A stretch of DNA of 64,000 bases from NCBI GenBank assembly GCA_963716475.1, contig OY970314.1, forward strand, positions 787,865-851,864, written 5' to 3'. This stretch comes from Candidatus Woesebacteria bacterium. GTDB lineage: Bacteria > Patescibacteriota > Microgenomatia > UBA8517. The notes beneath the pieces are model-generated. The model saw only the letters and a list, made by a program, of their open reading frames with translations. It did not search any database and was not told the DNA's origin. The translations under genes were made by a program, and so were the position numbers. This document shows positions 14,565 to 63,611 of this stretch, one piece after another (within the stretch, counting starts at the first letter, position 1; every line of letters starts with the position of its first letter).

Positions 14565-14565
14565 A

Positions 14566-38627: not shown

Positions 38628-39646
38628 AAATACTATCAATCGACACATCGTGCGATGAGACAGCCGTAGCTGTAACAGAAGATACAAAAATTCTAAGTAA
38701 CGTTATTTGGTCCCAGGCAAGCGCCCATGCTAAATTTGGCGGAGTAATGCCCTCTCTCGCCCAGCGAATGCACGAGGAACGAATCGATTGGGTTATAGAT
38801 AAAGCCTTAAAAATATTAAAAACCGAAAGATTAGATGTAATTGCAGTGACTGTCGGACCGGGGCTTTCAATCGCACTCGGCGTCGGAATCGACAGAGCCA
38901 AAAAACTGGCTACAAAGTACGACAAGAAATTAATTGCGGTAAACCATCTTGAGGGACATGTGTTGAGCTCCTTATTAAATCATGAGAATCTTATCTCGGG
39001 AATCAAGTATCCCGCCTTAGGCCTAGTCGTTTCCGGTGGAAACACAATTCTTGTAAAAATTAATAAAATTGGGTCTTACGAAACCTTGGCACAAACAACT
39101 GATGATGCACTCGGCGAAGCTTTGGATAAAGGGGCAAGGATGTTGGGGCTGGGATACCCCGGCGGGGCTATTTTAGAAGAGTTCGCACGTGGTGGAAATG
39201 TAAAAGATTATTCATTACCCATCCCAATAGCCGGTCAAGAAGAAAGGAAAATATTTACCTACTCGGGATTAAAAACCTCTTTCTCTCGATTGGTAGAATC
39301 CGAAAAACCTTTAACTAAAAAGAAAATTATTAATCTTGTGGCTTGCTTCCAAAATGTCGCTTTCACTCACCTGATCCGTATTTGTTCGCACGTAATTAGA
39401 AATTCGAAATTTAAATTTACTACTCTTCTTGTTGGAGGCGGCGTCTCAGCAAACATAGAACTTAGAAGACGTTTAAGAAAACTGGGTAAGGAAACAGGAA
39501 TTGAAGTCTTATTTCCCTCCTCCAGGAAACTTACGGGTGATAATGCTGCAATGATTGGAATAGCTGCATATTTTAAAGCCAAACGTAGAGAGTTTGTTGA
39601 AGTTGATAAAATCGATCGAAATCCAAGCGCAAAGATTACTGATTGA
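38624..39646 (+). CDS. tsaD: tRNA N6-adenosine threonylcarbamoyltransferase TsaD (Kae1/Gcp family).
   Basis: KILSIDTSCDETAVAV...VNHLEGHVLS (HxEGH metal site)...GGVSAN. A GTG start overlaps the tsaC-tsaE stop (GTGA); the ORF track begins at 38609. Confidence 0.8.
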   Translation: MKILSIDTSCDETAVAVTEDTKILSNVIWSQASAHAKFGGVMPSLAQRMHEERIDWVIDKALKILKTERLDVIAVTVGPGLSIALGVGIDRAKKLATKYDKKLIAVNHLEGHVLSSLLNHENLISGIKYPALGLVVSGGNTILVKINKIGSYETLAQTTDDALGEALDKGARMLGLGYPGGAILEEFARGGNVKDYSLPIPIAGQEERKIFTYSGLKTSFSRLVESEKPLTKKKIINLVACFQNVAFTHLIRICSHVIRNSKFKFTTLLVGGGVSANIELRRRLRKLGKETGIEVLFPSSRKLTGDNAAMIGIAAYFKAKRREFVEVDKIDRNPSAKITD

Positions 39647-39662
39647 TGTTACAATATTAGGC

Positions 39663-41726
39663 ATGGAACCCCAGTACGATCACACAAAATACGAGAGTGA
39701 TATTTATAAAAAATGGGAAGACTCCGGCGCCTTTTCTCCAAAACATGATGGTAATAACCCGTTTACTATCATTATGCCCCCTCCAAATGCCAATGATCCC
39801 CTTCACATCGGACATGCCAGATTTGTCGCCATTGAGGATATCTTAATCCGCTACCACAGAATGAAAGGGGAACCAACCCTCTGGCTTCCGGGAAGCGATC
39901 ACGCAGGAATCGAAACCCAGTTCGTTTTTGAAAAGAAACTAAGGGAAAAAGGAAAAAGCCGTTTCGATTACGACCGCGATACTTTATATAAAATGATTTG
40001 GGATTATGTTCAGGAAAATACCGGATTAATGGAATCCCAACTCAAAAAACTCGGTGCCTCCTGTGACTGGAGTAGATTTAAGTACACACTTGATCCCGAA
40101 ATTATAAAAATCGTGTATAAAACCTTTAAGAAACTTTACGACGACGGGTTGGTATATCGGGGTGAAAGAATTGTAAATTATTGTCCCCGCTGCGGTACTG
40201 CCTATTCGCAACTAGAGGTAGATTACGTCGAACGCGATGATAATTTCTACTATCTGGATTACGGTACGATCACAATCGCCACAACCCGGCCCGAAACAAT
40301 ATTTGCAGACGTTGCGGTTGCCGTTAATCCCAAGGATAAAAGATACACTAAACTAATCGGATTAAACGCAAAAATACCGCTTATTAACCGCGACGTTGCC
40401 ATAATTGATGATAATCTTGTAGATATAAGCCTAGGAACCGGGGCTCTTAAAATTACACCTGCACATGACTCTACAGATTTCGAGATCGGGCAAACCCACA
40501 AACTCCCCATCATATCCGTAATTGATGAAAAAGGTCGTATGACAGGTACTCCCGAGAAATACATCGGTCTGAAAGCGGAAATGGCAAGAGCTGAAGTCGT
40601 AAAGGACTTACAGGCTGCAGGTAAGATAAAGGAAATCGACGTCATTCACCATTCGGTAGGCACTTGCTACAAGGATCACGGCTTAATCGAACCCATGGTT
40701 TCCAAACAGTGGTATATAAAGGTAGAAAGTTTAACTAAAAAAGCTCTTGGGTCAGTAAGAAACAAGGAAGTCAAGTTTGCCGTTAAAAAGTACGAGAAGA
40801 TAGCAACTAATTGGCTAAAAAACCTTAAAGATTGGAATATAAGCCGTCAAATTGTCTGGGGAATAAGAATTCCGGCCTGGAGATGCGAGAAGTGTTTGGA
40901 ATGGACAATCACCGACGGAGATATTCCGACCGAATGTTCAAGTTGCAACAATAAAGTTTTATCGCAAGACCCGGACACGTTTGATACCTGGTTTTCCTCG
41001 GGTCAATGGCCATTCGTCACTTTACAAACGGGAAAATCCGGCGATTTTGAAAAGTTTTATCCGACAAGTGTTATGGAAACGGCCTACGATATACTACCTT
41101 TCTGGGTGATAAGAATGATTATGCTCGGGGTTTATGCAACCGGAAAAGTTCCGTTTAAAGAAGTTGTTATCCATGGGCTTGTCAGGGACCGCGAAGGACA
41201 AAAAATAAGTAAGTCCAAAGGGAATGTCATAAATCCAATTGAGATGACCGAAAAATATGGTGCTGATTCTTTACGGATGGGGCTTGTTTGGGGAGGGCTT
41301 ATTGAAAACGATATCACCCTTGATGAACAAAAGATTAACGGTCAGAGAAAATTTGCAAACAAAATTTGGAATATCGCCAGGTTTGTCACTTCAAGTCAAT
41401 CCGTTAAAAAAGCCACAAAAAATGCCGACGATGAACTTGTTCTAAGCGAATTGAAACAAACAATTAAAAATGTTTCAAAAGATTTGAACAAATTCCGTTT
41501 AAACGAAGCCGCTGAAAAAATATATGATTTTGTATGGCATAAGTTCGCCGATGTCTATATTGAAAAAACCAAGGACAGACGCAAAGAAGCCCAACCTACT
41601 CTGGAAAAAGTCCTTGTCAATTCACTTAAACTTCTCCACCCGTTTATGCCCTTTGTCACAGAACAAATCTGGCACGAAATGGGGAATAATGAGCTTCTGA
41701 TTACTTCCGAGTGGCCTAAAACTTAA
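39663..41726 (+). CDS. valS: Valyl-tRNA synthetase, short form without the C-terminal coiled-coil.
   Basis: PPPNANDPLHIGHARFVAIEDILIRYHRMKGEPTLWLPGSDHAGIETQ (HIGH), KMSKS KISKSKGN, and CPRCGT Zn knuckle. The N-terminal region is ValRS-like rather than IleRS/LeuRS-like. Start at the internal Met; the ORF track begins at 39594. Confidence 0.8.
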   Translation: MEPQYDHTKYESDIYKKWEDSGAFSPKHDGNNPFTIIMPPPNANDPLHIGHARFVAIEDILIRYHRMKGEPTLWLPGSDHAGIETQFVFEKKLREKGKSRFDYDRDTLYKMIWDYVQENTGLMESQLKKLGASCDWSRFKYTLDPEIIKIVYKTFKKLYDDGLVYRGERIVNYCPRCGTAYSQLEVDYVERDDNFYYLDYGTITIATTRPETIFADVAVAVNPKDKRYTKLIGLNAKIPLINRDVAIIDDNLVDISLGTGALKITPAHDSTDFEIGQTHKLPIISVIDEKGRMTGTPEKYIGLKAEMARAEVVKDLQAAGKIKEIDVIHHSVGTCYKDHGLIEPMVSKQWYIKVESLTKKALGSVRNKEVKFAVKKYEKIATNWLKNLKDWNISRQIVWGIRIPAWRCEKCLEWTITDGDIPTECSSCNNKVLSQDPDTFDTWFSSGQWPFVTLQTGKSGDFEKFYPTSVMETAYDILPFWVIRMIMLGVYATGKVPFKEVVIHGLVRDREGQKISKSKGNVINPIEMTEKYGADSLRMGLVWGGLIENDITLDEQKINGQRKFANKIWNIARFVTSSQSVKKATKNADDELVLSELKQTIKNVSKDLNKFRLNEAAEKIYDFVWHKFADVYIEKTKDRRKEAQPTLEKVLVNSLKLLHPFMPFVTEQIWHEMGNNELLITSEWPKT

Positions 41727-48486: not shown

Positions 48487-49320
48487 TCATGTTTCCGGAC
48501 GTGATCTTATCAAATTTAACCTCTTAATAAAAGGAGTCAAACTCCCCCATCCTGACATGCTTACCTGCTGCCATACGTTAACTACCGAAAAAACCAACCA
48601 GTAAAGTGCAAGCCCTGATTGAAATGTCAAACCAAAATAAAGGGTCATAAGCGGCAACATATAAGTCATTGAGCTCTGCATGGCAACTTGCATGTCGTCG
48701 GTCTGGGACTTGGTTTTTTTGGCAATTTTTTGCTCTTCCGAAATATATGGTGCCATTATCTTAACGGATAGAAACTGTGCAATCGCTGCCAAGATGACAA
48801 AAATCCCAGGAATTATGTCAGGTAACCCCGGTATCAACTTGTTTAACTTGTCCGGCTGGTTGATATCCATGTACAAAAATTTTGTATTTATTGTTTGGCC
48901 TTGCGAAAATTGTAGAGGAGCATAGAGTCGCTTATTAAGATTGGCTGTCACGTCTCCACTCCTGGCAAGAGCGGTGTTAAAAACGTTGAAAAGCGCTATC
49001 AATATTACAAATTGCAAAATATACGGAAGGCATCCTGCGGTTGGATTAATTTTGTTCTGCTTGTAAAGCTCTGCCTGTGCTTGAGACATTTTAAGTTTAT
49101 CTGTACCGAATTTTTTCCTAAGTTTTGCCAACTGAGGTTCCATCTCTTTTATTCTTTTCATTGATTGCATATAAGGTTTTGTCAGGGGTCGAAGGAGAAA
49201 GACGAGGACAAGACTAAAAACCAGTATCGCAATACCCAAATTTTGTCCCAAAACTTTATAAAAAAGAATAAGGCCGTTAGTTAGCGGTTGGACAAGAATG
49301 ATTGTAAAAATATTTCCCAT
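48487..49320 (-). CDS. yidC: Membrane protein insertase YidC/Oxa1, short form.
   Basis: ...MEPQLAKLRKKFGTDKLKMSQAQAELYKQNKINPTAGCLPYILQFVILIALF... with the conserved rpmH-rnpA-yidD-yidC-jag order. Confidence 0.85.
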   Translation of the reverse strand: MGNIFTIILVQPLTNGLILFYKVLGQNLGIAILVFSLVLVFLLRPLTKPYMQSMKRIKEMEPQLAKLRKKFGTDKLKMSQAQAELYKQNKINPTAGCLPYILQFVILIALFNVFNTALARSGDVTANLNKRLYAPLQFSQGQTINTKFLYMDINQPDKLNKLIPGLPDIIPGIFVILAAIAQFLSVKIMAPYISEEQKIAKKTKSQTDDMQVAMQSSMTYMLPLMTLYFGLTFQSGLALYWLVFSVVNVWQQVSMSGWGSLTPFIKRLNLIRSRPET

Positions 49321-51517: not shown

Positions 51518-51785
51518 GGATAACTATTTACGTATATAGAGTTATGAACAATGGGTTTACTTTTATCCACAAATCTATCAACATTCTGCCAGGCTTGTTA
51601 TTAACACGAAATTGTCCCGAAAGATGTATTTAAAAAATGATAATTCTCAACTTATCAACACCACCTACTACTAGAACTACTAGTTAATATATGATAAACA
51701 CAGTTTGTCACAAACTTCGTTTTGTGATAAATAACAAGATATTCACAGGGACAGTGAAACGAAAATGTAAAGATAAAATCATCCT
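51518..51785 (+). other. Candidate oriC: the dnaA-dnaN intergenic region with DnaA boxes and an AT-rich unwinding element.
   Basis: Perfect TTATCCACA at 51563..51571, a 1-mismatch TTATCAACA at 51652..51660, and AT-rich aaagatgtatttaaaaaatgataattctcaac at 51620..51650. Confidence 0.6.
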
Positions 51786-52910
51786 ATGAAACTACAAATC
51801 CTTCAGGAAAATCTGGAAAAAGCTGTCAGTACGACATCCCGTTTTGCCAGTACTAGAGCCCAACTTCCTGTTTTAGGAAACATTCTTCTTTCTACCAAAA
51901 AAACTAAAATTTATATTTCCTCAACAAACTTGGAAATTTCTGCTTCAGTCCAGGTAGGAGCAAAAATCGAAGAAGAAGGGGAAATAAGTATTCCGGCCAA
52001 GGTAATCTCCGAACTGGTCGCCAATTTACCCAAAGAAACAGTAAGCCTGGTATCAGAAAAGGAGCAGTTAAAAGTGTCTGTGTCAGGTTTTTCCTCAACT
52101 GTTTTGGGAATGAACTCTTCCGACTTCCCCAAAATACCAAATAGTGTAGATAAAGAAAAATCGATAAGTTTTCCACAAAGCGAATTGGTAAAAGCTCTTG
52201 GACAGGTCATATTTGCGACTTCTACAGACGAGACAAGACCCGTTTTAACAGGGGTACTCTTCTTGTTTGGAAAAAATTCACTATCACTGGTCGCAACGGA
52301 CGGATTTAGGTTGTCCAGGAAGACGCTTCCTTTGAAGGTAGGTAAGGGGGCGGATGACAGTGTGGTTATACCGAAGGGTGTTCTTAGTGAAATTTCAAGA
52401 ACAGAAGCGGAGGATGGTGAAATACTTTTCGGTGTGCAGGACAAAGAAAAGCAGGTACTTTTTGGGATAGGGGATACAGTACTAACTTCCCGTCTTTTGG
52501 AAGGAGAATACCCGGATTTTGAGAAAATAATTCCAAAAAGCTCGTCAATAAAAGTACTTTTGGATAAGGAAGAACTTATGAGGGCGGTAAAACTGGCATC
52601 TATCTTTGCCAGGGAATCCGCAAATATAGTAAAAATTAAGGTTTTGAAGGAATCGATCAAAGTTTCCGCCGAGAGCGGAACTGCGGGTAGCCAGGAAACC
52701 AGGGTAGATGCAAAAGTAACCACTGAAGGCCCCGATCTTGCCGAATGGGAAATAGCTTTTAACTACCGTTTTGTGGAGGAATTTTTACACTCGGTCGGCG
52801 GAGAAGAAGTAAAAATGGAATTCTCCGGCGTTTCCGCTCCGGGAGTTTTTACGGATACATCCGACACATCATATCTTCACCTGATAATGCCGGTTAAAGT
52901 TCAAACTTAA
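51786..52910 (+). CDS. dnaN: DNA polymerase III beta sliding clamp.
   Basis: MKLQILQENLEKAVSTTSRFASTRAQLPVLGNILLS... with three-domain length and position after dnaA. Confidence 0.9.
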   Translation: MKLQILQENLEKAVSTTSRFASTRAQLPVLGNILLSTKKTKIYISSTNLEISASVQVGAKIEEEGEISIPAKVISELVANLPKETVSLVSEKEQLKVSVSGFSSTVLGMNSSDFPKIPNSVDKEKSISFPQSELVKALGQVIFATSTDETRPVLTGVLFLFGKNSLSLVATDGFRLSRKTLPLKVGKGADDSVVIPKGVLSEISRTEAEDGEILFGVQDKEKQVLFGIGDTVLTSRLLEGEYPDFEKIIPKSSSIKVLLDKEELMRAVKLASIFARESANIVKIKVLKESIKVSAESGTAGSQETRVDAKVTTEGPDLAEWEIAFNYRFVEEFLHSVGGEEVKMEFSGVSAPGVFTDTSDTSYLHLIMPVKVQT

Positions 52911-53905
52911 AGACCTTCTAGGGCCGGTAAATAAAGTATCACTTGGACATCACCCACACCTAAGAGTGTTGCTGTCCCTGTTAGCTTATATACAGGTTGG
53001 AGACTTGTTGACGAAGTTGTGTCAAGTAGGTATGCAATATCTATTTGATCTATAACAATTTCCTTTACAAAATCCGAGGGTAAATCCTTCATAGGGGTTT
53101 CTACTCCGTCAAGACTGATTAAAACAGAGTTTCCGATAGAATCACCGATTTCTTTATAAGTCTTAATTGCATATTCAGTAGGCCCTTTTTGCGCATCATC
53201 AAAAACAACCAGTTGGAGCGAATAAACGTTCCCGCCTTTTGTTAGTTGTATGTAGTTGGTACTTTCAGTTGAAGTGGGTGAGATAATCTCGTATTCGGAC
53301 GATTTGGGTAAAATGTCTATTTGATATAACGAAAAATCGTCCCTGGTTGATTTTTTGAAACCTTCGCGTAAACCACCGTCTTTGAGGAATTGTACGTTTC
53401 CTAAAGAAAAGGCATTCGTATTTAAAATACCGGCATCTGTCAGGAATTTGCTGGCAGTGGCCTTAACAGCATCTTCCGATAGCTGCTTGTCGGTAACGAG
53501 GAAAGATTCTCCTGAGCTATAACGGATGCTCGACGTGTTTGTGTATGCAAAAAGGGTTGAGTTGTCGTTTTTCCAAAAATACGTCAGACCTTCTTGGGTG
53601 TCGTTTATTGTCGTAGGGAGACCTGTAAAGCCTATAAAGGAAGCAATATTATTGAGATAGTCTTCCGTAATGACTCTTTTTGTAATATTTAAAAAGGGAA
53701 GCCGGGCGACATATTTAAATTGGTTTTCCTTTATGTTTAAAGATATCGATAAAGCGCCATTGTAAGTTTGAACAAGATTTGGTTTATGGGGAACAAGGCC
53801 GGCATTTTTATTTGGAGTCCCTTTTAGATAAAGATATACGATCCAGACAATACTTATCAGGGATACGACAACCAAGGCTATTTTGATCAATTTCTTCACA
53901 TTCAT
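52907..53905 (-). CDS. Type-II membrane-anchored extracytoplasmic protein, hypothetical. It may be an accessory (VirB8-like position) of the adjacent T4SS-like module.
   Basis: A 332-aa protein with an N-terminal anchor LIKIALVVVSLISIVWIVYLYL and no motif I can name. It is the last gene of the minus-strand block 63611->52907, with a 9-nt gap after the giant gene. Confidence 0.35.
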   Translation of the reverse strand: MNVKKLIKIALVVVSLISIVWIVYLYLKGTPNKNAGLVPHKPNLVQTYNGALSISLNIKENQFKYVARLPFLNITKRVITEDYLNNIASFIGFTGLPTTINDTQEGLTYFWKNDNSTLFAYTNTSSIRYSSGESFLVTDKQLSEDAVKATASKFLTDAGILNTNAFSLGNVQFLKDGGLREGFKKSTRDDFSLYQIDILPKSSEYEIISPTSTESTNYIQLTKGGNVYSLQLVVFDDAQKGPTEYAIKTYKEIGDSIGNSVLISLDGVETPMKDLPSDFVKEIVIDQIDIAYLLDTTSSTSLQPVYKLTGTATLLGVGDVQVILYLPALEGL

Positions 53906-53914
53906 ATTATATGT

Positions 53915-56900
53915 TTAATTACAAGTTGCCGTACTTGTACAGCCAAGCGGAACATTTCTTTTAAGATAAGGTTTTTGAGTTGTGGGAATAGGCCCCGTGT
54001 CAAAGAATTGGAAGTGTAAATGAGGACCACTGGTACAGCTACCTGTGTTGTCACTGATTCCGAGAGGTTGGCCAATTGTTACTCTTTGACCGTTGCCAAC
54101 CATAACAGAACCCAAATGTCCGTAATATGAACTAAACGACGATCCGCCGCAGGACGAAGCCACACGAACCCACCTTCCCCCACAGGCGCTTTCCCCGGTG
54201 CTTATGGTTCCGCTATGCATGGCAATGATGGTTGCACCATTTACGCCAATGTCGATTGCATTTGGGGTGTTGTAATGTGTCCACCCCAGGGGTGTCATGG
54301 ACCCTTGGGTAATAAGATTTATGCCTGCGTCGTTGGCAAGAGGCCAGGCATTATTTGGGCATTCCATTGGCGGGGCGCCAATTATTATTGAGGCAGATCC
54401 TGCCGAAACCACACCCTTTTGGTCCGTCGTGTCTGCAGTAACAGTAAACGTGTTTACCGTTGCAGAATTGTCATAGTTGTGAGAGGTAAAACTTCGTGTG
54501 TAAGTGAAGCTAAAAGGTTTGGTCGGCGAAATCGAAACAGGCGCCGCAGGTGTCCCTTGAGAAGGGCTTGGGCAAGAGGGAGGTGTCCCTGTTTTGATAA
54601 CTTTGCATTCATCTTTAAAGGAAACATTGGTTAATACGCCTTTTTTAGCAGAAACAGTAATTGTATAGGTAATCTTGGTTTTTGTGGGAATGTCGGAGTT
54701 ATTGAAAGGGCCTGCGGGATTGGCAGTTTTTTCAACACTGATATAAGGGTTACTTAAAGCGGCAAGATAACCGGTTGGGGTTGACGGAGGAACGACATAG
54801 GCGCCGGAGTTAATAATAAAAAGAATCAGGGCAACCAGAACGGGGATGACGAGAAGGGCTATTAATATAGGCATAACAGCGGCTGTCAAAAAGGTCCTCC
54901 CTACGGCGCGAAAAAATACCGCAATTCCACTTCCAACTCCGGCCATTGTTACTCCGGCCGTGGAAGCGACACCAACGCCGACCACCGTGATCCCACCCAA
55001 AATAAGACCCGTACTACCGATGACCAAGCCACCAACCAGCATAGGCGCCCCAATAATGGCGCTTCCAATTGCCATGCCGTTTTCTTTTACCTTTTTCCAG
55101 TTGATCTTTTCAATAATTTTTCCTACCACCCAACCCAATGCCAAGGCAATCGCATTCCCGATAATCGGTATCCATGACCCTAGAGTCTGAAGAGCTGTGT
55201 TGAGAGCAACCATCGTGCCCTTGCCCACCACTGATACAGCGGCTTTTGTTGCCGCAGATGCAGCAGCCTTTCCCACTACTGGTGTTAGTAATTTTGTTAC
55301 CGCCTCGGTTTCAATTCCCGTTGCGAGACCTTCCGCGGCGACAATCCCGGTAGCACCCTCGGCCAATAAGGTTCCTCCCTCGACAACGGCTGCTTCTTCG
55401 ACCAACGCAGTGCCCTCAGTTACTAAAAGAGACGCTTCGGCAATTTCGGCAGGGGCAGCTGCACCGATCAGATCAATTCCCAAAACGTCGCCGAGACCTT
55501 CGAGAAAATTCGAACCACCCGGAATTTTTTGAATAAGACCCCCGAGCGGGCTTTCACCAATTGGCGTGGTCTTACTAAATCCCGCAGACGATAAGACTTG
55601 TTGTCCCAGCTCACTGTTGTAAAATTTGGAAATGGCGCTGTCTGCAGGCAGGTTGGCTATTTTAGAATCAAGAAAGTCTCTGGCACGACCCGTTAGTAAA
55701 CTTTTAGCCTTATCGCTAGCAAAAGAGCCAATATTGTCCAGAACATCTGACTGTGATTCCAGAAGATTAGTGTAGCCTTCATTAAGTTGCCCGAGGTCTA
55801 TTTCGTGTGTGTATCCTTCGTTCGGTTGACCTAAAAAGGAAACTTTTAAATTTTCGGGACCCGTACCAAAAACAGAAACTGCAAGATTTTCGTCTATTGA
55901 AGAGAGAATGTTCTTACTAAGTTGGGCGCTATTCTTAAAATGACCCAGATCCGCGGAGGCCTTTTTTAGAAGTTCGGCAGTGTTTGTTTCGGCGACCAAC
56001 TTTGGCAGAATCTTTGAATCCTCGGCTAAAGCACCCAGAATAGCGGATTGAGTGTTTGCGGATGATTGGGCGGGGAAATTATTAATTGCAGAAACCGTAT
56101 CAAATGCCGTTTTTTTGACTATAAAATCAATTTGTTCCGGGGTAAGTTTCTTTGAAAGCTCCGGGGTTATTTTTGCTTTTATACTTTCTGCCAAATCTTT
56201 TTCAAAGGATGCGGGATAATTTTTCGCTTCTTCTATAAACTTGATCGTACTTTCACTTGGTGGAGGAGCCTCTTTTGAAATTTCCACCCGGGCGTAAATC
56301 TTTTTACCCGTTAAAGGTTCCTGGATATCTTTTTGTCTACTAATAGCTTCTTCCAACTTTTCTTTTGCCCCCTCGCTTATGGTTGGTTGTTCCGGAATTA
56401 CCATTTTTTCTTCTGGTAGCTCAGCCGTAGGTCCCGCCTGTCGGGTAAAAAGAAGCGGTACGGATGTTATTGATTCAGAGGTAGGAGATGTTTCTATCGG
56501 TTGGCCTGAAAGTGAGACGTATGGGGTTAGTGTTGGAGCAGCAACCGCAACTGCGACAGCCGACGGTTCCACATTTAGTACCACAGGCTTAACTTCAGGG
56601 AGAACAACCTTGTCTAAAAGAACAGAGGTTTGCTTTGCAGATTCGCTCATTTTCCCGGGATAGTTAGCAGGCATAGACATCTTGGGCAGAACGGAAGGAG
56701 GTTCAATTTGACCGATTTCTACTTGTGAAGTAATAGTTGTGACACTGTTGCCAAAACTGTGAACATCGCTAATGTTGATTGCAGGTAAACTTTGATTCTC
56801 CTGATTCTCGGCTATTTTAAATTGGGTTGCCTCCTCGGGGCCGTAAGCAGCCACAACCACGTTTTCCGGTAGAAAAGTCTTCAAGAGAGCGGTGTTTGTT

Positions 56901-59900
56901 TGGTACTGTGTATTTGCGACGTCTGCGGCTGTTTTTGCAGCAGAAGCAAACTTCACCCTTTCTTCTGTGTCAGGAATGATGTTCTTAAGACCGGGATCGC
57001 GTGCGTCTGCTACAGCACTAAAATAAGCAACGGGATTAATGGGTGAGGCAATCTCTTTGGGAAGATCTTCTACGGTATTTATATTCTTACCTGCATCAAC
57101 CATACGCAAGGTGAAGTCTTGCGCTGTTTTTCCAATTACGGCCGGGGTTATAGATGCCTGTAGTGGTGGGTTTTTGGCAACAGCCGAACTGATATTTTCC
57201 TCAACGATTTTTTCGAAGGCGGGAGGGTCGTTTTTGGCGGCCTTCACAACATTAAAGAAGGCCGTTCGATCCTTGTTGCTTTGGAGAGGAATTGTTACTG
57301 TTTCAGTAGCAGGCTCAATTCTTATTTCCTTGACCGCAGTTGATGTTGTTTTTGGGGGGGTGGCAACCGCGACGGTTCCTCCGAAAAGCTCTTCCGGGAG
57401 AGAAACCTTTTCCTTGTTTATTGGGGATGGTTGGGAGGTGGTCTGGGAAGCTCCGAATTCGTCTGAAACAGGCATTTCTGATACGGAAAAAGGTGTTTCG
57501 GGAGCAGTGGTTTGTAGTATTGTGGCATGGGCGACGGGTGTTTCAGTTGTGGACAGCTCCGGCGCCAAGTTCTTTGCTTGAGTTAGGGGTTCTTCAATGG
57601 GGGCATTTTTAACACCAAAAAACGCCCTTATTCGGTCATTAATTTTTAGTTTGGTTGACGGAACCGTCGGAGTGGTGGAGACATTGATCTGAGAAACACT
57701 GGTGGGAGTTCCTACTTCGGGGGAATGCTCAGCCTCGTTAACGGGTAGCTGGGAATATGATGGTGGAAAGCCCGTTTCTTCGGTGGTAGGTAAGGGTTTG
57801 GGATTTGAAGCGGCATTCTTGTTTACAGGTATCAGGGCCGGGATTGGGGTAACAACAGGCTCCTCTGAAATGGGTGATGGTGTTTCGGAAGTGGGGGTGG
57901 TCTCCGAAGGAGTTTGACTTACTGTCGCCTGAGCAAATTGAACAGGAGGAGCAAAAACGGTCGGTGGAAACGGCGTCTGACTTGGCTCTGGAATTTGAGG
58001 AGTTTTCCCCAAGCCTTTAACAACACTATCCGTGGGCTTAACCTCTTGTGTTTGTACTACCACTGTTGGAATCACCGGTGGTATAAGCGTTACGGATGGT
58101 TCTTCGAAAACCGGTTGTGGGGACTCTTCCGTCACGGGAACGAAAGGCGGGTTCTCCGTTATTGTGGGTTGTGGTGTGCCTGGTGTAACCTGTGTTAGGT
58201 AAGGCGGTGGCGTGTATGTTACGGGTTGTGTTATGCCGGCTGCGCCTACCGAACCGGGTACACTTGTTGTTTCTTCATACGGTATCGGAGGGGTGGTATA
58301 TATCGCGGTTTCCTCTTCCGGGATCGGTTGTAACGGTTGTGGGGATTCCTCCTCTGTCCTTGCAATATGTCCAACGGCCTTTTCTCGTGAGGGCTCCCTG
58401 GTGCTGGATTCCTCTTTGGCTAGACCTTCGTTTTCCACCGGTGCCGGTTTTTTCTCAGGAGCTTTTTCAAATGTTTTTCTGATCCCTTCAAAGAAATTTT
58501 TCGGTGGGGCCTCGTCTGTAGTTTGTCTTGATTCGCCAGGTGTCCCTTTGGCCTTAGGAATTGTTCCATATACCATGGGTTGTTCTTCAGGAACGGGTTG
58601 TGATGCAGCGGATGTACCCAGAATTGACACATCTTGGGTTGGTTGAGTGGGCCGGTTAGACTGAATTGGCTGAATAGTCGGAATATACGCTACGGGTTTT
58701 TCCTCCTGGATTGGTTGCACCCCCTCTTCTCCTGCCGCCTCCTCCGTCTTTTTTGGTTTAGCTACTTTTATGGGTTGAGAGGTGTTTGGAGTATTTTGTG
58801 TGTTTGACGGTTGTTGATACCATGCCGATTGAACCTGTTGAGTGGGTTGAATCGGAATGTTTGCTGTACCCGGATTTTTTTGTATCTCTTCCGGCGCTCC
58901 CTGCGGAACAGACTGAGCCGGGTTATCGTTCTCTTTGGGAGCGGCCTTCCCGATAATGGCCGCTTGAAACGTTTTTGTTAGATTTTGAAAAGCCTGTTGG
59001 GGTGAAAACCTTCCCTTTGGTTTTGGTACACTTGGTAATTTTGACTCACCTGTTGCCTGCGTGAATGTTTGTGGCTGTTTTTCAAAAACATCCTGTGCAA
59101 GGAACGGCTCCCTGCTCAATTCGGGAGATTCTTGGATCTCCTCTTCTGTCGCTTGCGCTTCTTCTTGCCGGATTTTTTTCTGAAGATCGGCCTTACCGGT
59201 AAGCTCCTCCTGTCTACGGATTGCTGTTTTAATAGCATTTCCCAAAGCGTCGGATACTGTTTGTGTAGAGAATAGCTTTTTTGATTCCGACTTACTTGGG
59301 TTTACTGGTGAACGCATATCTTGCCTGTTTATTTCCGGTTGTTTTAATATGACACCGGGTGTCACAACGACCTCTGATGGGTGTGCGGACGGAATATGTT
59401 GTTTGAATTCTGGAGGTTTTAAAATAGCCTTTGCCTTTTGTACCTGCGGGGTCGCTTGCGGGGTAGGTTGTTTAACGGTCGTTTCCTTACCTTTTTCTGG
59501 AGCATTCTCGGCAGCTTTGACTTTTGAAGCTTCCGCCAGTGCCTGTTTTTTTTCTATTGAAGCCTGAACCTTTGCTTGGGCTTGCAGTTTTGTTTGTTTT
59601 ATCTTGCCTGTTCTTAAATTTTCCTCCGCCTGTAGTTGTGCCAGTTGATCCGGAGTTAAGGTGGTTGGGTGTACGGGGTATTCCGGCGCGCTTGTAACTG
59701 TCCGATATAAGATATTACTGGCAGACCTGATGTCGCTTGTTTTGGTTAGGTCTGTTATATAAACAAAGAAATCTTTATTGCTTGGCCAGTGGTATTTCCC
59801 GTCGATTGTCGTGAAAGATTCGTCGAGGCTCCTGTTTTCTCCTTCACCGAACAAATCGGACTTGAAAACTTGTTCGGTTCCATGAATAAGACCTTGAAGA

Positions 59901-59953
59901 TCCTGCCTGGTACATTGATCAAGAGTTTTGGGTGGAGCCAAATATTTCGCCAT
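53915..59953 (-). CDS. Giant (2012 aa) multidomain envelope protein. It has an N-terminal globular region, a roughly 1000-aa Pro/Thr/Gln/Glu-rich low-complexity region, a central folded region, a Gly/Ala-rich multi-TM block and a C-terminal M23 (LytM-type) peptidoglycan peptidase domain.
   Basis: The C-terminal about 130 aa read AIDIGVNGATIIAMHSGTIS...GGRWVRVASSCGGSSFSSYYGHLGSVMVGNGQRVTIGQPLGISDNTGSCTSGPHLHFQF, giving the HxxxD and HxH motifs. The TM cluster spans about aa 1530-1760 (nt ~54670..55370), and low complexity spans about aa 150-1150. It has no signal peptide and lies 24 nt downstream of the VirB4-like fragments. Confidence 0.7.
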   Translation of the reverse strand: MAKYLAPPKTLDQCTRQDLQGLIHGTEQVFKSDLFGEGENRSLDESFTTIDGKYHWPSNKDFFVYITDLTKTSDIRSASNILYRTVTSAPEYPVHPTTLTPDQLAQLQAEENLRTGKIKQTKLQAQAKVQASIEKKQALAEASKVKAAENAPEKGKETTVKQPTPQATPQVQKAKAILKPPEFKQHIPSAHPSEVVVTPGVILKQPEINRQDMRSPVNPSKSESKKLFSTQTVSDALGNAIKTAIRRQEELTGKADLQKKIRQEEAQATEEEIQESPELSREPFLAQDVFEKQPQTFTQATGESKLPSVPKPKGRFSPQQAFQNLTKTFQAAIIGKAAPKENDNPAQSVPQGAPEEIQKNPGTANIPIQPTQQVQSAWYQQPSNTQNTPNTSQPIKVAKPKKTEEAAGEEGVQPIQEEKPVAYIPTIQPIQSNRPTQPTQDVSILGTSAASQPVPEEQPMVYGTIPKAKGTPGESRQTTDEAPPKNFFEGIRKTFEKAPEKKPAPVENEGLAKEESSTREPSREKAVGHIARTEEESPQPLQPIPEEETAIYTTPPIPYEETTSVPGSVGAAGITQPVTYTPPPYLTQVTPGTPQPTITENPPFVPVTEESPQPVFEEPSVTLIPPVIPTVVVQTQEVKPTDSVVKGLGKTPQIPEPSQTPFPPTVFAPPVQFAQATVSQTPSETTPTSETPSPISEEPVVTPIPALIPVNKNAASNPKPLPTTEETGFPPSYSQLPVNEAEHSPEVGTPTSVSQINVSTTPTVPSTKLKINDRIRAFFGVKNAPIEEPLTQAKNLAPELSTTETPVAHATILQTTAPETPFSVSEMPVSDEFGASQTTSQPSPINKEKVSLPEELFGGTVAVATPPKTTSTAVKEIRIEPATETVTIPLQSNKDRTAFFNVVKAAKNDPPAFEKIVEENISSAVAKNPPLQASITPAVIGKTAQDFTLRMVDAGKNINTVEDLPKEIASPINPVAYFSAVADARDPGLKNIIPDTEERVKFASAAKTAADVANTQYQTNTALLKTFLPENVVVAAYGPEEATQFKIAENQENQSLPAINISDVHSFGNSVTTITSQVEIGQIEPPSVLPKMSMPANYPGKMSESAKQTSVLLDKVVLPEVKPVVLNVEPSAVAVAVAAPTLTPYVSLSGQPIETSPTSESITSVPLLFTRQAGPTAELPEEKMVIPEQPTISEGAKEKLEEAISRQKDIQEPLTGKKIYARVEISKEAPPPSESTIKFIEEAKNYPASFEKDLAESIKAKITPELSKKLTPEQIDFIVKKTAFDTVSAINNFPAQSSANTQSAILGALAEDSKILPKLVAETNTAELLKKASADLGHFKNSAQLSKNILSSIDENLAVSVFGTGPENLKVSFLGQPNEGYTHEIDLGQLNEGYTNLLESQSDVLDNIGSFASDKAKSLLTGRARDFLDSKIANLPADSAISKFYNSELGQQVLSSAGFSKTTPIGESPLGGLIQKIPGGSNFLEGLGDVLGIDLIGAAAPAEIAEASLLVTEGTALVEEAAVVEGGTLLAEGATGIVAAEGLATGIETEAVTKLLTPVVGKAAASAATKAAVSVVGKGTMVALNTALQTLGSWIPIIGNAIALALGWVVGKIIEKINWKKVKENGMAIGSAIIGAPMLVGGLVIGSTGLILGGITVVGVGVASTAGVTMAGVGSGIAVFFRAVGRTFLTAAVMPILIALLVIPVLVALILFIINSGAYVVPPSTPTGYLAALSNPYISVEKTANPAGPFNNSDIPTKTKITYTITVSAKKGVLTNVSFKDECKVIKTGTPPSCPSPSQGTPAAPVSISPTKPFSFTYTRSFTSHNYDNSATVNTFTVTADTTDQKGVVSAGSASIIIGAPPMECPNNAWPLANDAGINLITQGSMTPLGWTHYNTPNAIDIGVNGATIIAMHSGTISTGESACGGRWVRVASSCGGSSFSSYYGHLGSVMVGNGQRVTIGQPLGISDNTGSCTSGPHLHFQFFDTGPIPTTQKPYLKRNVPLGCTSTATCN

Positions 59954-59977: not shown

Positions 59978-60634
59978 CTATTTCGTCTCATAAGGGTTTG
60001 TGTTTACCTTGGCAACTTCCTCGGGCTTTGTGGTAATTAATTTATTTTCTTCTTCGGAAGCAACGACCCTGATTGGTGCATGGTGTGGCCCTGCAAAAAA
60101 TATTCCCTCCCCGACATTTGCCGCCAGAAGTAATTGTTTTTCTCCTTGCGAAAGATAAAACACTTCCCCGATTTTATCTATCGCCGCAGGACTCTGTTTA
60201 AGAAGAACCTGCATGGAGCTATTTGTGACAATGGCCTTACCGATATCCTGACCCAAAAAGTCTTCAACATCCTGTGTAATTGTTGTGAGGCCAAGATAGT
60301 ATTTTCTTGCCCTTTTAACAACACTCCATAAAAATTGGGCACTATCCGGGTACTTCATCATTTGCCAGGCCTCCTCGGCGACTAGGATGCGTTTCTTGAG
60401 GTCTTTTTTGACTCTTGTCCAAATAAAATCAAGAATGATAAACATGGCGATCGGGCGAAGAGCGTCCTGCATATCCTTGACTGAAAAAACGGTGAACGGA
60501 TTATTGATGTTGATATTTGTTTGCTTGTCAAAGATTCCGACGAAAGAACCTCTCACGAATTTTTCAATTCTGGCAGCAAGGTCGAGTGCTTCCGGCATTT
60601 CCATTCCGATTAGGGTTTTATATAAATCTTCCAT
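59978..60634 (-). CDS. C-terminal fragment of a VirB4/TrbE/CagE-family T4SS ATPase (Walker-B region to C-terminus).
   Basis: ...RILVAEEAWQMM...GEGIFFAGPHHAPIRVVASEEENKLI. It overlaps the preceding fragment by 17 nt in another frame. Confidence 0.5.
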   Translation of the reverse strand: MEDLYKTLIGMEMPEALDLAARIEKFVRGSFVGIFDKQTNININNPFTVFSVKDMQDALRPIAMFIILDFIWTRVKKDLKKRILVAEEAWQMMKYPDSAQFLWSVVKRARKYYLGLTTITQDVEDFLGQDIGKAIVTNSSMQVLLKQSPAAIDKIGEVFYLSQGEKQLLLAANVGEGIFFAGPHHAPIRVVASEEENKLITTKPEEVAKVNTNPYETK

Positions 60635-61802
60635 GAGAGGAGGCTCCCTTCCCTTGAGTGTCCGGATCTGTGGTTATTCCTTTGTTTCTGTAGGTTATAA
60701 CCAGGGCTCTGTCGAGAATAGCTTCCTGGATTGGAGTGATTTTGCCCATGATTACTTTTAAAAGAGAGTGCAGCGACAGAATTTTCTGGCCCAGCTGGTT
60801 TTCTCCTTCTTCCCTGATTTGAGCCAGATCAAAGGGATTTATTTTTGCCGGAGCATTGTAAGAGAAAGAAATATATTCTCCGCCGACAGCGGCAGTTAGA
60901 GGTTTATATTCACTTTCGGGGTCAATGACGATAACCTCCGTGCCGATCATGAGTGATCTTAAGGCCTCAAGTTTTACGAAATAAGATTTTCCGGCCCCGG
61001 ATGTCGCAAAGATCGTCATGTTTGCATTTTCAAGGCTAAATCGGTCAAAAATAATAAATGATTCATTTTGGGAATTTATACCGTACAAAACCCCGCGGTC
61101 GCTTGAAAGTTCTGTTGACGTTAGAGGAAAGGTTGTAGCAACTGAAGTTGTATCCATATTCCTTGTGACGTTTAGCCTGTCCATTCCAAACGGGGCAGTG
61201 GAAAGGAACCCGCTTTCCATGTCGAGAAGCGCGTGTTTGCTGACGATAAGGAGTGACCCAAGCTGAGACTCTACCTGTTTGGTTATGTGATTAAGCTCTT
61301 CTACCGAATTGGCGGGAATTGTAATGTAAAAACTGAATTCGAAAAATCTTTCAATTCCTTTAACGAGCTGTTCCTGGATGGCTAGGGCATCTTCGAGTTT
61401 GGCCTGGGTTACCGGGTCAACTATTTTACCGCGTTCAATGTCTGTGGACATTTCGGCTTCCATTTCCGCGATTTTTCGTCTAAGGTCGTCGAGGACGCTT
61501 TTCCCGTCAACGGGATATATATAAAAAGAAATATCGAGTGACGTATCGATATTAACTACCGGCTCAAGCCACCCGGGAGTGACGAATCTAGGGTAACCAC
61601 CCACAAAAATCGTGCGGAAATAGATATCGTTAATTTTTATATAATCAAAATCCTCATCAACCGTTTGTGGGGCAATCGCATCAAGCAAATTCATGCCCTG
61701 AGAAATTGCAAGGTTGGGATCGGTTATTTTAGGTTTAGTTTCGGCAGGGCCAATTGGCGGAACCGCCATTTGCTGCGTTTGTTTATTTGGATCTTGTTTC
61801 AT
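60618..61802 (-). CDS. Central fragment of a VirB4/TrbE/CagE-family T4SS ATPase, including the Walker A motif.
   Basis: ...DFDYIKINDIYFRTIFVGGYPRFVTPGWLEPVV... and P-loop MTIFATSGAGKSYF. It ends ...ITYRNKGITTDPDTQGKGASSHGRFI* after an apparent frame change. Confidence 0.55.
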   Translation of the reverse strand: MKQDPNKQTQQMAVPPIGPAETKPKITDPNLAISQGMNLLDAIAPQTVDEDFDYIKINDIYFRTIFVGGYPRFVTPGWLEPVVNIDTSLDISFYIYPVDGKSVLDDLRRKIAEMEAEMSTDIERGKIVDPVTQAKLEDALAIQEQLVKGIERFFEFSFYITIPANSVEELNHITKQVESQLGSLLIVSKHALLDMESGFLSTAPFGMDRLNVTRNMDTTSVATTFPLTSTELSSDRGVLYGINSQNESFIIFDRFSLENANMTIFATSGAGKSYFVKLEALRSLMIGTEVIVIDPESEYKPLTAAVGGEYISFSYNAPAKINPFDLAQIREEGENQLGQKILSLHSLLKVIMGKITPIQEAILDRALVITYRNKGITTDPDTQGKGASSHGRFI

Positions 61803-61807
61803 AATTT

Positions 61808-62533
61808 TTAATTCTTGTTTTGTTCATGTTCTAACGTAACCTCCGGCTCTTTTTTTACTGCAGGGTGTTCGGGATTATAGATAGAATAGAAAAGAGCAAT
61901 CAGGTCTGCTGTTCCAAGTTGCTTGAATTTTATTCCAAGGCGCCCTGCCTGGCGGATCAGATGGTCGCGTCTTGGATAAAGAGCAATTTTTGCCTTTTTG
62001 ACAACATAGGACTCGGCGAAAGGAAGCGGTCCCGCCCGTTTTGTTATGCTGGCGACAGAGTTTCCTACCCCCAGCTCCAGCGGCGAAAAGTAGAGTACTA
62101 CAAAAAATCTTTTTCCAAGAACATTCTTCTTTTTAACCGAATCGACAACGAAGTTTTTATAATTTTGCATGAGTTTAATAAGTATCGGTCGCGTAAGTTT
62201 TTTTGCCTCTTCATCCAGAAAGCTTAGGTATGAAGACACATCCTTTCTTTGCGTAAGGACTATCAACTGGATAGCAAAGGTCAGGGAATTGATCATTGCG
62301 GCGTAAGCCGCAATAACCGCGACCTGTTCCCTTTCGGACAGAAGGCCGAAGTTTAAGGATGTAGATTCCATGACAAGAGCCGCTCCGCCATCCTTATAGA
62401 CAACGACGTCGTTTGTGATGTCGGCAATAGGAAGATGTTCCTGAGTGGTTGCGATAAGGGGTTTATCGGGAGTTGATAGAATAGGTATTTTGGGAAAATT
62501 TTTCATCGTAAATTGATTATTGATAATTGGCAC
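61808..62533 (-). CDS. N-terminal-domain-like fragment of VirB4 (CagE_TrbE_VirB N-terminal pattern), or a separate small subunit.
   Basis: EHLPIADITNDVVVYKDGGAALVMESTSLNFGLLSEREQ... matches the VirB4 N-terminal pattern (IPY..hV.d.ii.tkdGsl..v..l.G..FE..s.ee). Its stop lies 5 nt before the next ATG, out of frame. Confidence 0.4.
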   Translation of the reverse strand: MPIINNQFTMKNFPKIPILSTPDKPLIATTQEHLPIADITNDVVVYKDGGAALVMESTSLNFGLLSEREQVAVIAAYAAMINSLTFAIQLIVLTQRKDVSSYLSFLDEEAKKLTRPILIKLMQNYKNFVVDSVKKKNVLGKRFFVVLYFSPLELGVGNSVASITKRAGPLPFAESYVVKKAKIALYPRRDHLIRQAGRLGIKFKQLGTADLIALFYSIYNPEHPAVKKEPEVTLEHEQNKN

Positions 62534-63611
62534 TAAAACCGGGATCTACTGATTGAACAATTGGTTGTGGCATGCCCCCTTGATCAAAAGTAACAGAGTC
62601 CTGTATCTTTCGGCCCTCGACAAGTATGGGAGGGATTAAAGTTCCTGCCGCATCAAAACTTATGGGTGCAAATTGATAGCCGTCTTTTTCGGTTGCTATT
62701 TGGTATCTGCCGCTGTCAAGTGGAGTAACAGTAATGAAATGTCCGACCTTGTTGCTTCTCAGGGCCCGCACGGGACGCCCCATCTCATTCCTGATTTCCA
62801 TGATGGCCCCCTCGATGATCTTTCTGTTTTCATCAACCACCTGTCCGACCACAACATTAGGAGTTTCGGGAGGATTGGGGGGAGCTGCATCAACCGAGAA
62901 AATAGCCTGTTTGGTCGAAACAATTTCATCGCCGGCGACGATCGGCGCAACGTTATGAGAGGTTGCGTTGACGGATGGAGCCATTTTTGTTTTTTCCTCT
63001 ACTACCAGACGGGGTGTGTTCTGCGGCACTATTTTCATCGGAATAGAAACGGGAACACTTAAAACACTTTTTGCTTCGGTAGGGGTAGGTGCGGGAGCAG
63101 CAGGCGCGGGAGCAGGAGTTTGAGTTTTCATCCCGGCGAAAATTCCGCTAAGAGCCGCTAAAAATCCCTGCTCGGCCAGCTCAAACCTGGAGAACGGGCT
63201 AGTATTTTGTTTTGGGGTGGTAAGGTAAACCTTAAGTGCGGCTTCCTGGGTGGTGGTGCCGGATACGGTGGGAGTTTCTACAGCTTCGTCTTGGAAAAAC
63301 TTGACGGGAGAAGTGGTTTGTTTCCAAAAAAATTCTGTGGGTGAATAAATTACCTTGAAGAAAGCAAAAATCCAACGTTCAAGCGGCCTCTCCTCCAAAG
63401 GGACAAAGGCCATACCGGCGCCAAGAAGAGCAGAAAGAATCGCCAGAGGCCATTTAATAATGCCGATAAGAGGAAGGGAGTAGATAATAAATGCGATGAC
63501 TAAACCGCCGGCCAACTCAAAGAACTGCTTAAGAGTCATGTCTCCCACCAACCGGAATTGGTAGGATGATATATTTTGCGGGATTGCGTGTTGTTCCATG
63601 CTCTTCGGCAA
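62517..63611 (-). CDS. VirB3/PrgI-like two-TM protein with a Pro/Ala-rich linker and a C-terminal extracytoplasmic domain.
   Basis: The N-terminal 100 aa LKQFFELAGGLVIAFIIYSLPLIGIIKWPLAILSALLGAGMAFVPL form a helical hairpin in the position usually held by VirB3/PrgI just upstream of VirB4. A TQTPAPAPAAPAPTPTEAKS linker is followed by about 180 aa more. Confidence 0.35.
   Translation of the reverse strand: MPKSMEQHAIPQNISSYQFRLVGDMTLKQFFELAGGLVIAFIIYSLPLIGIIKWPLAILSALLGAGMAFVPLEERPLERWIFAFFKVIYSPTEFFWKQTTSPVKFFQDEAVETPTVSGTTTQEAALKVYLTTPKQNTSPFSRFELAEQGFLAALSGIFAGMKTQTPAPAPAAPAPTPTEAKSVLSVPVSIPMKIVPQNTPRLVVEEKTKMAPSVNATSHNVAPIVAGDEIVSTKQAIFSVDAAPPNPPETPNVVVGQVVDENRKIIEGAIMEIRNEMGRPVRALRSNKVGHFITVTPLDSGRYQIATEKDGYQFAPISFDAAGTLIPPILVEGRKIQDSVTFDQGGMPQPIVQSVDPGFSANYQ

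Follow-up and report, generated by a model that had tools for sequence, protein, structure and literature searches.

A group of three consecutive minus-strand open reading frames (ORFs) raises the question of how many genes they represent and whether any of these genes is broken. The ORFs lie in a 64,000-nucleotide stretch of the genome of a Candidatus Woesebacteria bacterium, an ultra-small bacterium of the Patescibacteria (GenBank assembly GCA_963716475.1, contig OY970314.1, positions 787,865 to 851,864), hereafter the window, from whose first nucleotide all coordinates are counted. A reading of the letters alone had described them as a VirB4-like ATPase of a type IV secretion system (T4SS) encoded in three out-of-frame pieces. 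From the analysis reported here, the region very probably consists of two genes rather than of one gene in three pieces: a separate trsD-family gene and a virB4 gene that carries a single-base frameshift.

The three ORFs were found where this sequence-only reading had placed them and at the sizes it had given. ORF1 (61808..62533) opens on a GTG and encodes 241 amino acids (aa), ORF2 encodes 394 aa and ORF3 218 aa (Table 1). In the source record, a contig of 982,852 bp at NCBI and ENA, ORF1 is called as a gene of 232 aa from the ATG at 62506 (P0138), ORF2 as a gene of 383 aa starting at Met12 (P0258) and ORF3 as a separate gene of 218 aa (P0121). Both junctions read from the letters were recovered as well. 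At junction 1, between ORF1 and ORF2, the sequence TAA-AAATT-ATG leaves a spacer of 5 nucleotides (nt), and at junction 2 the ORFs 2 and 3 overlap out of frame by 17 nt (60618..60634). The ORF3 frame, said to be open back to 60676, runs 13 codons upstream to 60673, and the stop codon itself occupies 60674-60676. The notion of a single broken VirB4 holds at junction 2, where ORF2 and ORF3 are halves of one ATPase, and fails at junction 1, where ORF1 is a gene of its own.

ORF2 and ORF3 as halves of one VirB4-family gene

Profile matches and alignments show ORF2 and ORF3 to be two adjoining parts of a single VirB4-family ATPase gene, about 607 codons long. On the CD1110-family VirB4 profile conju_CD1110 (NF045971, 752 positions), ORF2 matched positions 181-533 (E=1.2e-61, 208.9 bits) and ORF3 positions 545-735 (E=1.1e-40, 139.7 bits). 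Neither ORF alone reaches the family cut-off of 325 bits, whereas their scores sum to 348.6 bits; the intact relative P0013 scores 365.8 bits. In Pfam, the VirB4 N-terminal domain CagE_TrbE_VirB was found at residues 58-204 of ORF2, which also matched positions 26-100 of the P-loop_TraG profile with the P-loop GAGKS included, and ORF3 matched positions 195-348 of the same profile. The GAGKS seen by the sequence-only reading is at residues 269-273 of ORF2. It was present in 61 of 82 aligned sequences and the remainder carried G[SGC]GKS, so that the Walker A motif is kept in all 82. Once the frame is repaired as described below, the protein matched the crystallised C-terminal domain of VirB4 (PDB 4AG5) with E=2.4e-45, and the junction falls inside this domain.

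The closest homologues of the fused 851-aa query were single proteins with 84-94% identity, about 570-670 aa long and mostly of 600-630 aa, that covered the ORF2 and ORF3 part alone. A more distant group (63-70% identity, 797-897 aa) covered ORF1 too. The sum of about 853 aa, which had been taken as the size of one VirB4, is thus not that of virB4 in the clade of the window, where the protein has about 600-630 aa. The likeness of the three pieces together to one VirB4 in size and domain order is real, fused forms of about 800-900 aa being found in distant lineages, but it is not diagnostic.

Related loci were collected from a scan of one genome per GTDB species, which gave 80 loci, and from one further locus, L001. 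In all 81 the counterpart of ORF2 and ORF3 is one ORF, aligned as a single segment through the junction. Loci of the scan with an informative title are named as Microgenomates, Woesebacteria, Gottesmanbacteria or other Patescibacteria.

One short homologue, P0128 (218 aa), was considered as an independent split of virB4 and rejected; its gene begins 9 nt from the end of a 1.6-kb contig and was most likely cut by the contig end. Two other close VirB4 homologues are unusually long, P0026 with 1429 aa and P0099 with 1202 aa. Both contain intein and LAGLIDADG domains (PF14890, PF14528) and are therefore intein-interrupted virB4 genes of related Patescibacteria.

A single extra G at junction 2

Compared with its relatives, junction 2 is a true frameshift within the ATPase domain, between Walker A and Walker B. 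The nearest relative at the DNA level, L001 (a 604-kb contig), has 78% nucleotide identity to the window, and its alignment contains one indel over the whole 1.8 kb of ORF2 and ORF3, an extra base in the window at about 60655. This base is a G within CAAGGGAAGGGAG (60646-60653) and may be assigned to either GGG run, 60651-60653 or 60646-60648; on the minus strand the site reads CAAGGGAAGGGAGCC. The single fusing indel that had been anticipated around 60640..60675 was accordingly located. With one G fewer in the second run the translation reads DTQGKEPPLMEDLY, just as in L002 and L003, and with one G fewer in the first run it reads DTQGREPPL.... Either repair restores the highly conserved motif KGITxDPxTQxKEPPLMEDLY, which is broken between KGITxDPxTQxK and EPPLMEDLY.

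In a low-confidence structural model of the VirB4 relative P0016 (mean predicted local distance difference test score, pLDDT, of 49.9), the break is located in a coil or loop between two helices of a helical insertion. In the crystallised domain 4AG5, it corresponds to about residues 163-182.

The additional G in GGGAAGGG shifts the virB4 frame by +1 within the conserved motif. ORF2 ends with nine out-of-frame codons (GASSHGRFI) and a stop, and the 1-nt insertion leaves Walker A and Walker B of the window on separate reading frames rather than on a single polypeptide. As written, the product would be a 383-394-aa N-terminal part ending in GASSHGRFI*, with Walker A and without Walker B and the remainder of the ATPase core. 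VirB4 is the ATPase that energises characterised T4SSs. Lacking Walker B and the rest of the core, this product could not form such an ATPase.

Full-length VirB4 might in principle still be made from the sequence as it stands if ribosomes shifted by +1 in a programmed manner, either on the G run or on UUU-AUA-UAA. A +1 shift on GGG-A would restore DTQGREPPLMEDLY, and a G-rich stretch resembling a Shine-Dalgarno sequence lies nearby. The site nevertheless contains no known +1 signal, neither a slippery codon followed by a stop nor a hungry codon at the right spacing, and the distal slip on UUU-AUA would replace the conserved EPPLMEDL motif. Since no shift is needed in any of the 81 relatives, whose codons at the site vary freely, recoding is highly improbable.

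TrsD and its boundary with virB4

ORF1 is a conserved stand-alone gene, probably of the TrsD family, and not a broken-off N-terminus of virB4. The source-record protein P0138, 100% identical to the ORF1 product, carries the TraC-like domain PF26593 in precomputed annotation. Among 1516 homologues of ORF1 in the protein database, the best 120 are without exception stand-alone, 213-241 aa long and annotated with PF26593. The gene of the window conforms to all invariant columns of this family. Other matches were weak. The NCBIfam TrsD model (NF041427) gave E=1.3e-5 and 25 bits against a cut-off of 200, positions 109-234 of the VirB4 profile of Mycoplasma integrative and conjugative elements (ICE; NF045975) were matched weakly, a local Pfam scan of ORF1 returned no strong match, and the AlphaFold model of ORF1 was unusable (pLDDT 38.7). 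No support was found for the label of a VirB3-interacting domain that ORF1 had been given.

The gene is also separate in the relatives. An ORF1 homologue was found upstream of virB4 in 73 loci (boundary counts being taken from retallied ORF stops), and in 70 of them it is an adjacent separate ORF; it is fused to virB4 in two (L022, L044) and distant in one. The locus L078, flagged as a further fusion merely through a 60-nt overlap, was discarded. The frame offset between the two genes falls into all three classes (16, 24 and 30 loci), the median spacer is 3 nt and an ATGA overlap is seen in 13 loci; in L001, virB4 begins 4 nt after a TraC-like gene of 239 aa. Variable offsets, short spacers and ATGA overlaps are the pattern of an ordinary operon boundary, and as far as these comparisons go junction 1 is such a boundary, translationally coupled, and neither a lesion nor a recoding site. 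ORF1, whose protein is a remote relative of VirB4 N-termini, lies a few nucleotides ahead of virB4 and has a translation start of its own. The sequence-only reading had held that a frameshift could be dismissed if the pieces were likewise separate genes in close relatives. For trsD this is the case in 70 of 73 loci, which goes against a split at junction 1, and the one undivided ORF in 81 of 81 loci leaves the case for junction 2 untouched.

Fused TrsD-VirB4 proteins of 797-897 aa occur in a minority of lineages (L022 and L044; P0001-P0012, P0014, P0018, P0036), so the boundary has been crossed at least once, by fusion or by fission. A library clustered at 50% identity contains 2123 representatives that match ORF1. 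The best 150 of them share the N-terminal domain and differ in their tails, and just one, of 787 aa, has the length required for a VirB4 fusion. These TrsD-domain proteins (P0280-P0429) consist of an N-terminal domain of about 200 aa followed by a very variable C-terminal tail, for a total of about 115-787 aa and many of 300-600 aa.

The existence of the fused forms, together with the match of ORF1 to the Mycoplasma ICE VirB4 profile, is what speaks for the alternative that two lesions cut an ancestral VirB4 of about 853 aa into the three pieces. The fused forms are, however, just 63-70% identical to the window, and in every relative with 84-94% identity trsD stands apart from a virB4 of 600-630 aa. 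With a stop and a start at the boundary in 70 species and every frame offset represented, the three-piece history is very unlikely, and the preferred reading is that of an intact trsD followed by a frameshifted virB4.

Conservation on both sides of the frameshift

Apart from the extra base, little in the virB4 of the window departs from its relatives. In columns conserved in at least 95% of the 81 relatives, the window deviates at none of 91 positions in the ORF2 part and at one of 74 in the ORF3 part, the latter being the Glu of Walker B. In a comparison with 103 close homologues, the ORF2 part of the window had 8 deviations and the ORF3 part had 1, all of them conservative, where the medians of the other sequences are 3 and 2. 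The ORF2 part thus has slightly more lineage-specific changes than the median relative, and 10 of the 103 relatives reach or exceed 8. Relative-rate counts revealed no excess of substitutions downstream of the frameshift. The trsD gene, the prgI-like gene and the ORF of about 6 kb with an M23 peptidase domain that surround virB4 are open and intact. Because virB4 and its partner genes show no other decay, any real inactivation of virB4 must, on these counts, be very recent.

The Walker B motif required separate attention. The canonical form hhhhDE is not found in the window, which has ILVAEE (VAEEAW) instead. VAEEAW was considered as a unique second lesion and a sign of pseudogenisation, and this was ruled out: [VI]AEEAW is common to the window, to L001 (also to P0013, P0015 and P0016) and to 53 of the 103 close intact homologues, the other 50 having [VI]DEAW. 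The covariation is strict, Ala going with Glu and Val or Ile with Asp. Being present in intact relatives, AEEAW is, by this comparison, a clade-level Walker B variant of an otherwise highly conserved ATPase and not damage. The pair of changes, Asp to Glu and Val to Ala, may mark a VirB4 subgroup with altered catalysis. An IIEEAW motif that arose independently was observed in L066, from WWE3.

Origin of the extra base

Whether the bacterium itself carries the extra G is a separate question. Two answers were rated about even, with a slight lean towards an error or an unfixed variant over a recent real mutation, because selection seems to act in full on virB4 and on all its partner genes and because no examined relative has a broken virB4.

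According to the first answer, which has nearly an even chance of being right, the extra G is an artefact of sequencing or consensus building, or a minor unfixed variant chosen by the assembler; virB4 would then be intact and the T4SS working. The gain of one base sits in a G run, and the signatures of purifying selection are full on both sides of the shift. Several broken virB4 genes in public data lie in assemblies in which most or all genes are shredded. In L084 and L086 (ENA ERZ1286166), the whole prgI-trsD-virB4-dnaN locus is cut into ORFs of 40-300 aa, which indicates error-ridden assemblies, unlike the clean window. L085 (JGI 3300076001), with virB4 in at least five pieces and a seemingly short dnaN, is a less clear case. 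In addition, the separate ORF2 and ORF3 products occur in the NCBI/ENA record only, and not in the Logan assembly that shares the neighbouring genes; look-ups of the ORF1, ORF2, ORF3 and prgI products returned no recorded gene.

Several points weigh against an artefact or unfixed variant. An intact copy was not retrieved: an exact look-up of the repaired full-length VirB4 (two repairs, two starts) in the protein collection found none, JGI metagenome contigs scanned for the junction with either length of the G run gave 0 matches, and the search with a 101-aa junction peptide returned short fragments alone, none above 87% identity. No second event of this kind occurs in the 64 kb. The G run is short, with 2 to 3 bases, and none of the roughly 50 homopolymers of at least 7 nt in the window has a frameshift; in so clean a window, a random indel error at a run of 2 to 3 G is less expected and a real mutation is favoured.

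The second answer, a quite plausible one that still falls short of an even chance, is a genuine and very recent loss-of-function frameshift, which would make virB4 a young pseudogene and the T4SS non-functional. The shift is present in the deposited sequence, and the source record calls two genes there. Slippage of the polymerase on short runs of G is a frequent source of spontaneous mutations. The assembly looks accurate, as judged from the long homopolymers and from 38 other large ORFs of the window, in which no split domains were found; the fragmented virB4 genes of L084 and L086, by contrast, come from assemblies with every gene shredded. The independent Logan assembly contig L083 (run ERR12035932), the one contig of the same organism retrieved there, is 100% identical to the window over 51667-54227, that is, over 2.5 kb nearby. 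Against a loss of function stand the 81 intact relatives at species level, the normal substitution counts downstream of the shift and the integrity of trsD, of the prgI-like gene and of the 6-kb ORF, which depend on the ATPase. T4SS genes have also been reported to be essential in the one Patescibacterium tested (PMC12102498).

A real frameshift could also be tolerated. Translation of ORF3 would then begin at the conserved internal Met encoded by the ATG at 60634, 17 nt ahead of the stop of ORF2, and the two chains would come together again as an active split ATPase. The first codon of ORF3 is precisely that of a Met conserved in most relatives (PPLMEDLY, a few having Ile), neither half has decayed, and the break falls in a coil between helices and aligns to the 4AG5 region given above. 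The structural model behind this placement has, however, a mean pLDDT of just 49.9, none of the 81 relatives is split there, and no functional VirB4 is known to us in which Walker A and Walker B belong to different chains. The sequence AAGGGAG lies 9 nt upstream of the ORF3 ATG. Of 44 candidate starts, just 11 are preceded by a Shine-Dalgarno-like tetramer, the frequency in random 17-mers being 19%, and well-defined starts (dnaA, dnaN, yidC and the giant ORF) have A/T-rich leaders instead. Since such motifs are not enriched at gene starts here, AAGGGAG carries little weight and the argument for independent translation of ORF3 drawn from it was dropped. Taken together, a split but active ATPase is unlikely.

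The T4SS cluster and its genomic surroundings

The features of the region are collected in Table 1. Upstream of trsD, the prgI-like ORF is open from a TTG at 63611, with a likely start at the ATG at 63599. Its Pfam match to PrgI (PF12666) covers residues 10-91 with 28.4 bits against a cut-off of 27, and its C-terminal part matched CarboxypepD_reg (E=3.5e-4). Downstream of virB4, the 2012-aa ORF has a Peptidase_M23 domain at residues 1898-1985 (E=1.3e-13), long low-complexity regions rich in Pro, Thr and Gln, and a hydrophobic stretch rich in Gly, Ala, Val and Ile. The same syntenic position is occupied by genes of 918-980 aa in L001 and L085. The M23 protein is probably a cell-wall hydrolase or a surface component of the T4SS.

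Table 1. Coordinates of the T4SS cluster and neighbouring genes in the window
Feature	Position	Strand	Basis or remark
prgI/VirB3-like membrane protein with CarboxypepD_reg-like C-terminal domain	62517..63599	-	First gene of the T4SS cluster
trsD-family gene (ORF1), separate and intact	61808..62506 (open from GTG 62533)	-	Identity to P0138, PF26593, synteny
Intergenic spacer AAATT (5 nt), trsD stop to virB4 ATG	61803..61807	-	Read as an ordinary operon boundary
virB4 5' part (ORF2), N-terminal VirB4 domain and Walker A	60618..61802	-	Profile matches
Walker A GAGKS, ORF2 residues 269-273	60984..60998	-	Motif
Frameshift site GGGAAGGG, one extra G relative to every relative	60646..60653	-	DNA alignment
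virB4 3' part (ORF3), Walker B and C-terminal part of the ATPase domain	59978..60634	-	Profile matches
Walker B VAEEAW, clade-wide Asp-to-Glu variant	60365..60382	-	Homologue comparison
2012-aa protein with C-terminal M23 peptidase, intact, directly downstream of virB4	53915..59953	-	Pfam
dnaA	50156..51517	+	Pfam
dnaN	51786..52910	+	Pfam

The same order is found in L001, where a prgI-like gene (334 aa), the TraC-like gene (239 aa), virB4 (621 aa), a 918-aa gene and a 191-aa gene are followed by dnaN and dnaA. The cluster of prgI (VirB3-like), trsD, virB4 and the giant M23 gene beside dnaN and dnaA is a standard T4SS of Patescibacteria, similar to those of the mating pair formation (MPF) type FATA. 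VirB6, VirB2-like pilins, a relaxase and a coupling protein were not detected in Pfam scans of the 38 large ORFs, which did not extend to small ORFs or to dedicated MPF profiles. The cumulative GC skew reaches its minimum at 48-52 kb, beside dnaA and dnaN, and yidC (48487-49320) and a KH/R3H gene were observed upstream of dnaA. The window thus probably contains the replication origin, abutted by the T4SS cluster.

Elsewhere in the window, two FemAB-family ORFs of 332 and 313 aa lie next to each other (13566-15420, plus strand). Each aligns to the C-terminal portion of the FemAB model, and the pair resembles tandem paralogues, not a split gene. A leucyl-tRNA synthetase ORF (39594-41726, plus strand) ends at residue 710, inside its match to the anticodon-binding domain (profile positions 1-106 of 148), with a gene of the opposite strand directly next to it. 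This enzyme is either naturally short or truncated.

Comparison with known systems

Among the T4SS components of Patescibacteria, TrsD has been described as the most abundant one; it has remote homology to the N-termini of VirB4, its gene is mostly beside virB4, and the cluster is often near dnaA (Quinonero-Coronel et al. 2025, Microb Genom; PMC12102498). In Southlakia epibionticum it is essential (PMC12102498). The window resembles these chromosomal T4SSs, related to MPF-FATA (PMC12102498), in that the PrgI/VirB3-like, TrsD and VirB4 genes are adjacent and close to dnaA and dnaN, and in that the named close homologues are labelled as Microgenomates, Woesebacteria or other Patescibacteria. It differs from them by the 1-nt insertion in virB4 and by the unusual length of the gene downstream (2012 aa).

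With CD1110-family VirB4 (NF045971), the window shares a contiguous match of ORF2 and ORF3 over positions 181-735 and the Walker A sequence GAGKS. Its virB4, by contrast, is without the first 180 or so positions of the profile, a separate TrsD being encoded upstream instead, its Walker B has AEE rather than DE, and the gene is frameshifted in the assembly. The structural reference for the repaired protein is 4AG5, the C-terminal domain of VirB4 from Thermoanaerobacter pseudethanolicus.

Two further families throw light on ORF1. Like TrsD/TraD of Gram-positive conjugative plasmids of the pGO1/pSK41 type (NF041427; PF26593), it is a small protein encoded immediately upstream of a VirB4 homologue and bears a remote likeness to VirB4 N-termini (PMC12102498). 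The match of the window to this family is nevertheless weak (25 bits against 200), the context is chromosomal and no relaxase was evident nearby in general scans. In the VirB4 of Mycoplasma ICE (NF045975, Mbov_0397 family), a single-chain model spans a region like ORF1 (109-234) as well as the ATPase, as in the fused forms of Patescibacteria. In the clade of the window there are two separate genes instead, and scores are far under the family cut-off of 590 bits.

Significance

The arrangement of trsD and virB4 in the T4SS of Patescibacteria is already published, and nothing new is added to it here beyond a correction of annotation. The locus is to be annotated as trsD followed by a frameshifted virB4, and not as three genes or as a pseudogene in three pieces. 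It illustrates that an apparent gene split can be a conserved gene boundary, as between trsD and virB4, and that a seemingly damaged catalytic motif such as AEEAW can be a trait of a clade. The extra G is either an ordinary lesion or a sequencing error, unique to the assembly. Some small chance is given to a more unusual outcome, in which the extra G is real and fixed and the T4SS is run by a two-chain VirB4 through re-initiation at the conserved Met, or in which the lineage has just lost an origin-proximal T4SS that is otherwise universally retained. If virB4 were truly dead, this would tell about the lifestyle of the organism, since the one Patescibacterium tested is reported to require its T4SS genes for epibiotic growth (PMC12102498).

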